From positions 2,218-66,217 of the IMG/VR virus record IMGVR_UViG_3300011744_000001: a stretch of 64,000 nt of DNA. One strand, 5' to 3'. Position numbers and translations under genes: made by a program. Source of the DNA: a virus. Its lineage: Duplodnaviria > Caudoviricetes. Of this stretch, positions 40,436 to 57,817 are shown piece after piece. Within the stretch, counting starts at the first letter, position 1, and every line of letters starts with the position of its first letter. The notes below the pieces were generated by a model. It did no database searches, was not told the origin of the DNA, and saw nothing but the letters and a program-made list of their open reading frames with translations.

Positions 40436-40714
40436 GTGAACACAACAAAGATTTTGGGAGAAGCGGTTGGCATCCAAAGCCAAGGGGTGGTGGACCGCAC
40501 AGAAACACGGACAAATGTTGGCTTAACCAGCGCAATCATTATTGGACTGTTTAAACGTGGCCGTGTTGACCGTCCTATGGTGATACACAATGGCAACATC
40601 CGTGGGCAACTTGGCTATGAACCGAATAATCCCTACTACATGGCTGTGCAGGACTGTCTGGATACGGGTGTGCCCAGTATTCAGGTATTGCGGGTTGGTA
40701 GCTTGGCAGCTTAA
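40436..40714 (+). CDS. Stand-alone sheath N-terminal-like module
   Basis: TSAIIIGLFKRGRVDRP...AVQDCLDTGVPSIQVLRV resembles sheath N-termini; 71/88 identical to the N-terminus of 56624. Confidence 0.7.
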   Translation: MNTTKILGEAVGIQSQGVVDRTETRTNVGLTSAIIIGLFKRGRVDRPMVIHNGNIRGQLGYEPNNPYYMAVQDCLDTGVPSIQVLRVGSLAA

Positions 40715-40738
40715 TTTCAGGTGAATAATGGAGCAAAC

Positions 40739-42025
40739 ATGAGTACGTTAAAACTATCAGCAGCTGGTGTATTGTCAATTAATGGCGTGGGTGCAAGTGT
40801 ACTGACCTTGGATTTTTCAACATTTAGTTTTTTGTCTGATACAGAACTTGAAATTGCATTTTTCAGCAAAATCAGTGCGCCCCTTTTACTTTCTGATCTC
40901 ATCATGCGATTAAGAATTGTGGATGCCACAACGGGTGATGAGGTAATTAAAATTCAGGGTATTGTGAATTCTTATCCTGAAAATATGGCATCCATTGTTG
41001 CGGTGGCTGATGCGACTGAAGAATTTGAACAGTTTGAATTATCCCTTGGAGTGGATGCTTTTAACGCTATATTGGACTGTGATGCCTTTAACTCCTTGAA
41101 CAGCTTGGGGCGTAACAAGGTTAATTTGACCCTAGATGATGAGCAACCGCCGCCATTTGATCCAGATGTAACCTATAAATTCCTTACAACACTGGTTGAC
41201 CCACCTGCATACCTGGCTTTGCCTGTAGCGGAGGAATTGCCACTTTATGTCGCAATGTTGAGGGCGGCGGAAAAGCTGAACATCCCGCTTGATGTTGAAA
41301 TTGATCCATCTATCACCCCTGAACAGGCAGCACAGTTTGCAGAAACACTGGATGCACAGACACATCAGGTTCAAACAATCTGGTCCCCTAACTTGTGCCG
41401 TCCCCGTGATGCGGTATCGTTGCGTGGACGTAAGATTTTTGCGACCTATATCGGTCAGCATATCGGTGACAAGCTACTTCGCAATGCACGTACCAATGCA
41501 CAGGGCTATGCACCGATTCATGTTGCGGTGGCTTGGAAAGATTTCCCTTTCCGCAAAAAGGCACTGGAACTTCGTCAAGATGTTGTACTCGATGAGCCAA
41601 CAATGGAAATGCTTGCAGTTGCAAAAGTAAATGTGGTGCGCCCAATCAAGTTTGACGTTGTGCAGTTCGTTTTAAGTGATTTATTGACACAGTACCAGAG
41701 TGCAACCAGCGCATTACGCTTGGTACCAGCCGCTGAAATCGCAATGCGTACCAAGAATGATGCGGTCAATATCCTTAAGCGTCATATGTTGAAGCCAACA
41801 GCCGACTATTTAGAAAAGGCCAGCAAGGAACTTGATAAATATTTATCTGGCGCAGTTACTTCTGGATGGTTAAAGCCAGCAGAGGATTTAGGTGGAAAAC
41901 CTTATGACTTCCGATTAACGCCTGATCAGGACAAGCCTTTTGAACGGGTTCGATTATATATGGCACGCCGTCCAGAGGGTGCGGTGCGGTCAGTCATCTT
42001 TGATGAAGATGTTCTTGTTAAGTAA
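40739..42025 (+). CDS. Contractile tail sheath protein (P1 gp22-like)
   Basis: LAVAKVNVVRP, LSDLLTQY and AVTSGWL sheath C-terminal features; GGAG RBS before ATG 40739. Confidence 0.7.
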   Translation: MSTLKLSAAGVLSINGVGASVLTLDFSTFSFLSDTELEIAFFSKISAPLLLSDLIMRLRIVDATTGDEVIKIQGIVNSYPENMASIVAVADATEEFEQFELSLGVDAFNAILDCDAFNSLNSLGRNKVNLTLDDEQPPPFDPDVTYKFLTTLVDPPAYLALPVAEELPLYVAMLRAAEKLNIPLDVEIDPSITPEQAAQFAETLDAQTHQVQTIWSPNLCRPRDAVSLRGRKIFATYIGQHIGDKLLRNARTNAQGYAPIHVAVAWKDFPFRKKALELRQDVVLDEPTMEMLAVAKVNVVRPIKFDVVQFVLSDLLTQYQSATSALRLVPAAEIAMRTKNDAVNILKRHMLKPTADYLEKASKELDKYLSGAVTSGWLKPAEDLGGKPYDFRLTPDQDKPFERVRLYMARRPEGAVRSVIFDEDVLVK

Positions 42026-42051
42026 CTTTAAATTATTAAGTGGTGATATAA

Positions 42052-55718: not shown

Positions 55719-55720
55719 AT

Positions 55721-56419
55721 ATGCTCAGTTTTGATCCAATTTCCATCGGTGAGAATAGCTACCAGTTGAATGAAGTCACATTCAATGAAGCGCTGAAAGT
55801 CTCCGCTGTTGATGCTAAACTCAATGAAAAGCGAATCTCTGCTTTCCTGTCGCAATCGCTAAAAAATAATGCGTTGCCTCTCAAGATGGCGGCACAGGAA
55901 CGTTATTTTTTAATGCTCAAGTATGTTCAGCAGCAGACCAATACATTGTTTTCAAGTGATGCTGACCTTTCGAAATGCTTCCTTGAACAGGGGGCATGGC
56001 TGAACCAGATAACAGAACAGGGAATTACAGTACGTCAGTTGAATGGGGCTGAAGCTGAATATCTTGAAGCGCACTGCATGAACGCAGCGGAATGGATTGC
56101 CTGCATGTTGGCTTTTCAAATCAGTTATGAAGATCATGAACATCTAGGGAGCTTTCCTGACCGTGGCCTGCCTGACCTTGCATATAAAAATCAGTTTTCT
56201 CTACGCCTGAATTACCTGAAATCACTTCCGCAAAGTGATTTTGACCTGGTTTACCAGGATTTCCAGAAGCTAAACAACCAGCTTTTTACTCATTTAGAGC
56301 TAAGTGTGAACAACGACGGTTTCGTAGTACAAAGAGGTGCAGATGACGCGCCTTTACGATTTCGCGCCTCTACCGCCTTTCTCGGAATCATCAAGGAACT
56401 GGACCAGTCATTTACTTAG
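55721..56419 (+). CDS. Baseplate hub assembly-like protein
   Basis: 232 aa; context only. Confidence 0.45.
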   Translation: MLSFDPISIGENSYQLNEVTFNEALKVSAVDAKLNEKRISAFLSQSLKNNALPLKMAAQERYFLMLKYVQQQTNTLFSSDADLSKCFLEQGAWLNQITEQGITVRQLNGAEAEYLEAHCMNAAEWIACMLAFQISYEDHEHLGSFPDRGLPDLAYKNQFSLRLNYLKSLPQSDFDLVYQDFQKLNNQLFTHLELSVNNDGFVVQRGADDAPLRFRASTAFLGIIKELDQSFT

Positions 56420-56627
56420 TACGGCCCAGAATCTTGCCAATAATTGCAAGATGTCATTGTTTGAGGTGCTGAATTTGCCTGTCAGTTTTGAGGCTGACTA
56501 TTACGCATCTGAAGCTTGGGAGGAGCGTAAGAAAGAAATGGAGAATGAGGTCCAGAAGCAAAATGCATTGATGAAAATGGGTAATGAAATTATCAAATGT
56601 TTAAACAATCTAGGTAAACGACGATGA
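56337..56627 (+). CDS. Small tail-assembly protein (start uncertain)
   Basis: Overlaps the previous ORF; MSLFEVLNLP is a plausible internal start. Confidence 0.45.
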   Translation: MQMTRLYDFAPLPPFSESSRNWTSHLLSTAQNLANNCKMSLFEVLNLPVSFEADYYASEAWEERKKEMENEVQKQNALMKMGNEIIKCLNNLGKRR

Positions 56628-57817
56628 ATACAACAAAGATATTAGGTGAGGCTGTTGGCATACAAAGCCAAGTCACAGTAGACAAGACCGAAACACAAAC
56701 TAAAGAAGGACTAACTTCAGCCTTAATTGTTGGTCGATTTAAGCGTGGTCGAGTAGATAAGCCAATGACCATTCACCAAGGTAACATTCGCGGTCAATTG
56801 GGCTATGAGCCAACAAATATTGATTATCAAGCTGTACAGGATTGCTTAGACACAGGTGTACCTAGCGTCCAGGTGTTACGTGTGGGTGGCCTTGATAATG
56901 GTAATGTTCCTATTGGCTGTGAGGGGGCTACTACTGAGGCTTGGTTTACCAATGGTTCGGGAGCATTTCATATTACAGTGAATGGTGAGTTCTTTGAGAA
57001 TACGGGTAATTGGGGTGTTGGTTATATGCTTAGTCAAATACCTGATCTAGCTTCCATACTTGAAGGTGAGGGTGGTGGTGATTTCAGGTTCTTTAATAAG
57101 GTTCCTGAATTTCTTAGAATTAAATTAGAGCCTATACAAGCTGAGGTATGGGATATTGCAGAATCGAATAACAACCCGACAATTGATATTAATGGTGAGG
57201 GTGTAATTCAATTCTGTTTAGCACCTTATGTACCTCCCATAGAAGAACCTACCTATGATATTAAATATCTAGTAAATGGTTCTTGGATTTATGAAACAAC
57301 AGGTCCTACTGTTGAGCAAGATGCTAACCGAGATATTTATAGGACTGCTGCCACTGAACTGGTTATATCTGATTCTGTTACAGAAATTAGTTATTATGCG
57401 TTTCGATTTTGGTCTGCTCTTACATCTGTAAAATTAGGTCAATCTATTAGAGTAATTGGTAATAGGGCATTTGAATACTGCTCTAATTTAACTAAATTTA
57501 TATGTCCTAATAGTTTAGAGTCGATAGCAGAAACAGCTTTAGGTGAGTGTCGTAGTATCAGATTGGTTGAGTTTAGTACTAGTTTAAATTCAATAGGAAG
57601 TGCAGCTTTCTCAGGGTGTTCTTTACTAAAAGTGGTAGTATTTAGATCTAGAAACATGCCCACAATAGAACAGTATGCGTTTGGTAATGGAGGTAATAAT
57701 AGTCCTAGACCTGATATTGTTTATGTGCCTGATGATCTAATTAATCAGTATGCAATAGTACTTTCGAATCTTGCTGATATTTCAAAATTTAAACCATTGA
57801 GTACCTATGAGTCTTAA
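56624..57817 (+). CDS. Sheath-N-like module fused to a BspA-type leucine-rich repeat
   Basis: Residues 1-88 are 81% identical to 40436; C-terminal L.SV.L..SI..IG..AF..C..L repeats (~23 aa). Confidence 0.85.
   Translation: MNTTKILGEAVGIQSQVTVDKTETQTKEGLTSALIVGRFKRGRVDKPMTIHQGNIRGQLGYEPTNIDYQAVQDCLDTGVPSVQVLRVGGLDNGNVPIGCEGATTEAWFTNGSGAFHITVNGEFFENTGNWGVGYMLSQIPDLASILEGEGGGDFRFFNKVPEFLRIKLEPIQAEVWDIAESNNNPTIDINGEGVIQFCLAPYVPPIEEPTYDIKYLVNGSWIYETTGPTVEQDANRDIYRTAATELVISDSVTEISYYAFRFWSALTSVKLGQSIRVIGNRAFEYCSNLTKFICPNSLESIAETALGECRSIRLVEFSTSLNSIGSAAFSGCSLLKVVVFRSRNMPTIEQYAFGNGGNNSPRPDIVYVPDDLINQYAIVLSNLADISKFKPLSTYES

Follow-up and report, generated by a model that had tools for sequence, protein, structure and literature searches.

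Can the sheath of a contractile phage tail be built from two polypeptides, and can a second copy of the smaller one carry a binding domain to the tail surface? Both questions are raised by a stretch of 64,000 nucleotides (nt; hereafter the window) at positions 2,218 to 66,217 of the IMG/VR virus record IMGVR_UViG_3300011744_000001, which comprises nearly the whole 66-kb record (estimated completeness 97%) and represents an Acinetobacter prophage with capsid, portal and terminase genes, P1-like structural genes and Dar-type genes. A short gene that resembles the N-terminus of a tail sheath protein stands directly before the sheath gene, and a second copy of it opens a fusion gene that ends in a leucine-rich repeat (LRR). 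Here we argue that the locus is best explained, on balance and with somewhat better than even confidence, by a two-chain sheath with passenger-bearing paralogues of the small chain on the tail.

A sheath encoded by two genes

The genes of the split sheath, with sizes in amino acids (aa), are arranged as follows.

40436..40714, + strand: free sheath N-module gene, 92 aa, GTG start, assigned from a phrog_1036 match, other PHROG matches and the structural model
40730..40733, + strand: sheath body ribosome-binding site GGAG, read from the sequence, 5 nt before the ATG at 40739
40739..42025, + strand: sheath body gene, 428 aa, encoding domains III and I, the remainder of domain II and the C-terminal arm
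42052..42831, + strand: phrog_1053 gene, 259 aa, which always adjoins the sheath body and has the position of P1 gene 21

The open reading frame (ORF) of the free module matches phrog_1036 (tail sheath) over positions 6-64 (E 4.6e-6) and covers positions 1-89 of three PHROG families without assigned function (phrog_5283, 14345 and 24956). The sheath body lacks the N-arm and matches positions 117-530 of the 531 positions of phrog_1036 (E 8e-110); its start is equivalent to about residue 100 of the P1 sheath protein gp22, the arm and the first segment of domain II being placed in the separate gene at 40436-40714. The TAA of the module ORF (40712-40714) is in frame with the sheath ORF, and 8 codons lie between them. 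A reading of the window from the sequence only (the sequence-only reading) had described the module as a gene of its own before the sheath gene, with its stop in frame and with a separate ribosome-binding site for the sheath, and these observations were confirmed. The free module starts with GTG, preceded only by a distant, weak AAGG 10 nt upstream (window 40419-40438); the GTG start is common to the free modules of close relatives (G005, G007-G014), and fused copies start with ATG.

Two explanations would make the short ORF part of a single sheath gene. A full-length sheath might be produced by stop read-through or frameshifting across 40712, the small ORF being merely its N-terminus, as the shared frame and the short gap between the two ORFs in the window would allow; or the gene might have suffered a recent nonsense mutation in a decaying prophage, with the second module copy as a recombination relic, in line with the single genes of P1 gp22 and of distant homologues. 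A search with the body retrieved over 100 clusters of body-only homologues, 423-449 aa long, whose identity ranges from 98% to 40%; all of their named members are from Acinetobacter or Alkanindiges. One-gene sheath forms of 544-657 aa appeared only at 36-38% identity; in the alignment their module is joined to the body by a linker of 10-20 aa or by an inserted domain, at the site where the window has its stop and restart. Those true one-gene forms that were found in IMG/VR sit on contigs of 4-7 kb, and two other candidates proved to be split. The frame and position of module and body were surveyed at 78 IMG/VR loci. In the closest relatives (L004, L009-L015 and L019) the module lies directly upstream of the body but in a different frame (+1 or -1), with overlaps of differing kinds; a large set of A. 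baumannii prophages has it behind the phrog_1053 gene, about 850 bp downstream of the body, and in some relatives it is 9 kb away from the sheath gene. Because the two ORFs differ in frame or position among relatives, the in-frame TAA of the window is a one-in-three coincidence without significance, and read-through is not needed to account for it; the body, moreover, has its own GGAG and ATG. A viable phage with a split sheath is known: the isolated myophage vB_AbaM_ABMM1 has the downstream-module arrangement, and phrog_1036 is covered there by two pieces, at 5-92 and 92-530, whereas the single gene of P1 covers 1-531. Both relaxed or extended and contracted tails of ABMM1 have been seen by transmission electron microscopy (PMC10345192). 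The module genes have their own start codons, and the module copies are under strong purifying selection (see below). On the survey of frames and positions and the length distribution of homologues both explanations were rejected, read-through or frameshifting as highly improbable and the nonsense mutation as scarcely credible. The sequence-only reading had suggested that read-through at 40712 be considered, which found no support, and had allowed that homologues with a single gene would point to a nonsense mutation; such homologues are confined to distant relatives at or below 38% identity and so do not indicate a nonsense mutation here. The comparisons indicate instead a two-gene sheath conserved across the clade.

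In two one-gene relatives of 657 aa (P0128 and P0262) a DUF3383-type domain of about 100 aa is inserted between module and body, so that the junction tolerates insertions in one-gene forms too. No extra module copy was found in P1.

Structure of the two pieces

The read-through product was folded with the TAA read as Q, and the alignment used for this combined one-gene forms with bodies and free modules. The resulting model (predicted local distance difference test score, pLDDT, 89; predicted template modelling score 0.87) packs residues 28-90 into the body with pLDDT 94-97 and leaves residues 1-27 disordered. Its top structural matches are entries of the P1 sheath, and in 9AY3 (Z 28.1, root-mean-square deviation 4.4 A, 433 residues aligned) model residues 28-517 align with residues 33-518 of the gp22 chain. 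In P1 the N-terminus of gp22 (residues 3-34) pairs with the C-terminus of a neighbour in a "handshake"; domain II consists of residues 35-99 and 243-425, the outermost domain III of 100-242, domain I of 426-516 and the C-terminus of 517-528 (PMC10304247). This domain map and the fold alignment together place the chain break of the clade at the junction of domains II and III. According to the model, the module thus consists of the handshake arm (residues 1-27) and the first domain-II segment (28-90), and the body opens with the surface domain III.

The core domains I and II and the C-terminal arm of a P1-type sheath were recognised by both profile and fold; the N-arm and the first domain-II segment, which a P1-type sheath has on the same polypeptide, are on a separate one. 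Compared with PDB sequences, the profile of the read-through alignment gave no match at E 0.01 or better, and the link to P1 therefore rests on phrog_1036 and the fold. The window shares with P1 gp22 (PDB 9AY3, 8JAN and 8JAJ) the PHROG family and the fold, a similar length (529 aa in gp22, 520 aa for module plus body), the gene order 23-22-21-tube, and PmgG and Dar-like genes. It differs in that gp22 is one polypeptide without extra module copies, whereas here there are two genes and the N-terminal piece has passenger-bearing paralogues; sequence identity between gp22 and the window sheath is only about 13%.

We propose that a two-chain protomer builds the contractile sheath of this P1-like temperate Acinetobacter myophage. 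From the 92-aa module would come the N-terminal handshake strand, which connects a subunit with its neighbours, and the strands and helices with which domain II begins; the body, of 428 aa, would account for domain III on the outside, domain I facing the tube, what remains of domain II, and the C-terminal arm. Completion of the sheath in trans by the free module, as put forward in the sequence-only reading, is very probable, because the split is clade-wide and includes a working contractile tail, the pieces tile profile and fold, and the break falls on a domain boundary. The cut coincides with the point at which the chain passes from the sheath wall to the outside, so that any polypeptide fused to the C-terminus of the module would point outward.

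The fusion gene and its passenger

The second copy of the module belongs to a fusion ORF of 397 aa (56624-57817) with three parts.

56624..56893, + strand: second module copy, which opens the fusion gene with an ATG that overlaps the upstream TGA (ATGA)
56900..57241, + strand: beta-rich domain of about 110 aa, residues ~93-206, model pLDDT about 90, the commonest passenger family
57242..57817, + strand: BspA-type LRR passenger, residues 207-397, AT-rich, Pfam LRR_5 at E 4e-24

Residues 1-90 of the fusion protein are 80% identical to the free module (E 4.7e-46). Pfam LRR_5 (PF13306) was recognised on residues 241-355 with 85.4 bits, well above the gathering cut-off of 27.7, and G + C content is 0.33-0.35 across the LRR versus 0.42-0.44 upstream. 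The model of the fusion protein (pLDDT 87) has three units, with pLDDT 97-98 over residues 210-350; the LRR forms a solenoid that matches PcpA (Z 17.2), TpLRR (Z 16.3) and Bacteroides surface LRR proteins. The earlier description of a second module copy, a spacer and an AT-rich BspA-type LRR thus needs correction only in the spacer, which is about 110 aa long and not about 130. The list of structural matches was filled by LRR matches, and no fold was identified for the 110-aa domain; against Atlas its scores were below 0.9, with weak leads to sheath surface domains only. No sequence link of this spacer to domain III of the body was found (BLASTP E 1.9).

The LRR passes the Pfam threshold and has the same fold as BspA-like LRR proteins (TpLRR 6MLX, PcpA 4CP6 and the Bacteroides LRR proteins); unlike those surface proteins, it has no signal peptide or cell-wall anchor and is fused to a phage sheath segment. 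One wastewater DNA contig (depth 5, shorter side of 40 nt) joins 57250 to 57844 and skips 593 nt corresponding to the LRR, which may be weak evidence for a natural LRR-less allele. Contigs of a wastewater metatranscriptome cover parts of the fusion gene; since DNA carry-over is possible, they are not taken as evidence of transcription.

A module at the N-terminus of many proteins

When 1.84 billion representatives were searched exhaustively with the module (cut-off E 1e-3), at least 297 protein clusters proved to contain it. Among the 150 representatives listed, with total lengths of 62-762 aa, the module is N-terminal in every one, and the sheath body is carried by only two. At least 60 further residues are present in 124 of the 150, and these fall into 57 passenger sequence clusters, the largest of which (44 members) is the 110-aa domain of the window fusion, repeated in some proteins. 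Pfam recognised LRR_5, DUF285 and LRR_8 among the passengers of the representatives, and LRR_5, DUF285, Laminin_G_3 (a concanavalin A-like lectin domain) and Big_6, an immunoglobulin (Ig) domain, among those of the IMG/VR relatives, where passengers reach 1259 aa; few passengers were recognised, and those that were are all binding-type domains. Named module proteins are "hypothetical proteins" of Acinetobacter, and a query of genome contigs with a single protein gave 15 loci in several Acinetobacter species, Alkanindiges and one metagenome-assembled genome of Pseudomonadota. A search for the module fused to other domains in related prophages, which the sequence-only reading had recommended, was thus answered by LRR, DUF285, lectin and Ig passengers.

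Selection on the module copies

Module copies have ratios of nonsynonymous to synonymous substitution (dN/dS) of 0.01-0.09, indicating strong purifying selection, and in one related prophage (G007) the free and the fused module have no amino acid difference at a synonymous divergence (pS) of 0.25. The handshake arm is disordered and without a role inside the monomer in the models of both the read-through product and the fusion, and its conservation is 0.58 in fused and 0.55 in free copies. A tree of 31 module copies groups them by phage lineage and not by type or slot, with well-supported lineage groups for G004, G014, G015 and G005/G006; it requires 15 label changes, compared with a mean of 20.7 after shuffling, and none of 200 shuffles was as low. 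The window is the exception to this pattern, its fused module grouping with the free module of another prophage. Such concerted evolution is consistent with a need of both copies to match the same body.

Predicted docking of the fused module to the body

The body (428 aa) was co-folded with residues 1-205 of the fusion protein, using alignments supplied by us, so that the calibration counts hold only roughly. The co-fold score was 0.88 versus 0.00 for the best of three controls; among solved complexes 58 of 80 attained that mark, and among mismatched pairs 2 of 110 did. The runs share at least 73% of their contacts, and the pLDDT of the partner is at least 71. Only module residues 29-90 form the interface, with body residues 28-35, 62-69, 136-163 and 222-272, and the 110-aa domain is left free of it. 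The co-fold, a check proposed together with the original claim, supports docking of the fused module to the body.

Slots, configurations and mosaicism

In at least 10 relatives the genes encoding a module with a passenger X (module-X genes) occupy a conserved slot, here called slot A, in the order PmgG-like, phrog_6830, phrog_9371, module-X, phrog_1024 and endolysin, with the module start overlapping the upstream stop and X ranging from 202 to 652 aa. A second conserved module-X slot lies downstream of the tube gene. The flanks of slot A in the window are as follows.

54822..56627, + strand: upstream flank with PmgG-like, phrog_6830 and phrog_9371 genes, in the same order in L006-L025
58044..58972, + strand: downstream flank with the phrog_1024 gene and the endolysin gene, 98-100% identical to L006, L018 and L023

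The sequence-only reading had called the passenger domain interchangeable, and the conserved flanks and module, the varying passengers and the two conserved slots agree with this. Passengers would be exchanged through recombination that makes use of the conserved module to their 5' side and of the conserved downstream genes to their 3' side.

Whole-record searches of IMG/VR records that are at least 90% complete revealed three configurations: a free module only, as in ABMM1-like phages; a free module with one or two module-X genes, as in the window and in G005, G007-G009, G011, G014 and G018; and, in G004, a provirus that is 100% complete, a pair of module-X genes (431 and 192 aa) that adjoin a body-only sheath, the free module being absent. 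If the module is essential, as its handshake role implies, a fused copy must act as the small subunit in G004.

The fused module of the window is 95% identical in nucleotide sequence to the free module of a related prophage of a G007/G011-like lineage, and the phrog_1024 and endolysin genes are 98-100% identical in amino acid sequence to that lineage; the sheath body, at only about 72%, and the genes just upstream of the fused module, at about 70-74%, are much less similar. These contrasts indicate that the window phage is a mosaic and that the native partner of the fused module is a different body. A recombination joint lies at about the start of the fused module.

Two further arrangements were observed. 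One record (G034, that of locus L094) has three tandem module genes of 467, 99 and 281 aa directly upstream of a body-only sheath, at about 12168-14778. A module-lectin gene of a metagenomic relative (L023:9986-11305) has an in-frame stop after codon 7 and, if expressed from the next ATG, would lack the first ~13 residues of the handshake arm.

Placement of the fused copies

In the reading that we prefer, paralogous module-X proteins would pair with the sheath body instead of the free module, probably on a fraction of protomers, and would thereby bring adhesin-like domains to the surface of the tail. That virions take up fused copies and display the passengers on the tail is plausible and the best reading of the comparative data, its chances being about even; the passengers would then probably act in adhesion. 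The corresponding claim of the sequence-only reading, that the fused paralogue co-assembles and decorates the tail, agrees indirectly with the conservation of the handshake arm, the dN/dS values, the concerted evolution, the configuration of G004 and the co-fold. The more general proposal that in Moraxellaceae myophages the small half of the split sheath is a display adaptor, by whose handshake arm any protein opening with the ~90-aa module would be built into the sheath lattice, and whose passengers (LRR, lectin, Ig or domains without assignment) are swapped by recombination at two slots and tune binding to hosts, capsule, biofilm or other surfaces, is tentative and falls just short of an even chance. 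Several points weigh against the explanation that we prefer. A GTG start with a weak and distant AAGG is unexpected if one free module is required per copy of the major sheath protein; gene conversion alone could yield the concerted evolution; and the good co-fold score may reflect likeness to solved one-chain sheaths with the same intrachain contacts. The fused module, 80% identical to the free one, comes from a lineage whose body is about 72% identical, and its fit here is not assured. The liquid chromatography-mass spectrometry report on ABMM1 (text and supplement) is silent on whether Gp12 or Gp14 correspond to the identified bands, and a passenger of 300 aa may or may not be sterically tolerated by the sheath lattice.

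The most serious alternative accepts the two-chain sheath and would confine module-X proteins to special positions, for instance the first ring, next to the baseplate, or the last one, beneath the terminator, which implies about six copies acting as collar or baseplate fibres and not a coat along the tail. Extracellular contractile injection systems do place sheath paralogues at defined positions, and AFP and PVC paralogues are among the fold matches; the terminal sheath ring of P1 is distinct in conformation and binds terminator strands by the same beta-sheet augmentation (PMC10304247), and passengers as large as the longest found could be accommodated more easily at either tail end. The free and fused modules within a genome, however, are identical or nearly so and bear no mark of position, and in G004, which has no free module, fused copies would have to fill the whole sheath; we consider a restriction to the tail ends unlikely, while taking it seriously. 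According to another alternative, module-X proteins are not part of the virion and bind free bodies, either as assembly regulators or as decoys that poison the sheaths of related phages. A body-binding module, as predicted by the co-fold, with a bulky passenger could cap or block polymerisation, and these prophages are common and co-occur in Acinetobacter. But the genes lie inside late structural units and are translationally coupled to morphogenesis genes, adhesin-type passengers make little sense in the cytoplasm, and the handshake arm, which is needed only in the assembled lattice, is conserved, all of which makes a regulator or decoy improbable.

Comparison with other systems

No paper describing a two-gene phage sheath was found; as far as the literature was found, phage sheaths are treated as single-gene, and the only well-known two-chain sheath is that of type VI secretion systems (T6SS), formed by TssB and TssC. 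TssB contributes the handshake strand at the N-terminus together with two strands of the sheet in domain 2, and TssC the remainder along with the C-terminal strand, with the break at the outer layer (PMC5807055). Models and homology assign the small chain of the phage sheath a TssB-like share, namely the handshake strand and strands of the middle domain, and predict the same partition into two chains as in TssB/TssC (VipA/VipB). A Pfam scan of module and body gave no family, TssB/TssC included, at E 0.01 or better, and the likeness appears to be a functional parallel and not family membership. The T6SS sheath is a recyclable cytoplasmic organelle, unlike the virion tail considered here; no ClpV-binding domain is apparent in the phage sheath, although no search was aimed at a ClpV-like gene, and we know of no TssB paralogues with adhesin domains.

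Several related sheath proteins co-assemble in one sheath also in Afp2/3/4 and Pvc2/3/4, which are among the fold matches of the model; these paralogues are full-length, unlike a shared small subunit with variable passengers. Domains of Ig, lectin or adhesin type, non-essential and exposed on a subset of the major structural subunits of a virion, are represented by T4 Hoc, the C-terminal Ig domain of lambda gpV and Ig domains added by programmed frameshifting. In those phages either a separate decoration protein bears the domain or a frameshift inside a single gene adds it; in the present phage a split major protein would have a paralogue of one of its halves as the carrier, and the gene for that paralogue has a separate slot with exchangeable content.

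As a conserved feature of viable phages, the two-gene sheath is an independent or intermediate example of a TssB/TssC-like split and bears on the origin of the T6SS sheath. If fused paralogues co-assemble, they would represent a new means by which phages equip a major structural lattice with binding domains that can be exchanged, a ready-made scaffold for protein display on contractile tails in the manner of a natural modular phage display, and a variable locus with a bearing on how Acinetobacter phages, a group of therapeutic interest, adsorb. The comparison also gives a structural context to phrog_5283, 14345 and 24956 and to at least 297 clusters annotated as hypothetical.

Other features of the locus

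Three terminator-like hairpins, all of them pattern matches only, accompany the genes described above.

40333..40357, + strand: terminator-like hairpin with an 11-pair stem followed by a T run (pattern scan, consensus match only), closing the preceding unit
42851..42879, + strand: terminator-like hairpin, ending the unit of module, sheath and gp21-like genes
57956..57976, + strand: terminator-like hairpin after the fusion gene

The unit of module, sheath and gp21-like genes starts on the 3' side of the first hairpin. P1 gene 21, whose place is occupied by the phrog_1053 gene at 42052-42831, is labelled 'baseplate or tail tube'; in ABMM1-like phages the phrog_1053 gene stands between the body and the module gene. 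In the upstream flank of slot A, the ORF at 56337-56627 overlaps the end of the phrog_6830 gene; because it matches phrog_9371 only from its own residue 39 on, its real start is probably an internal ATG near 56451.

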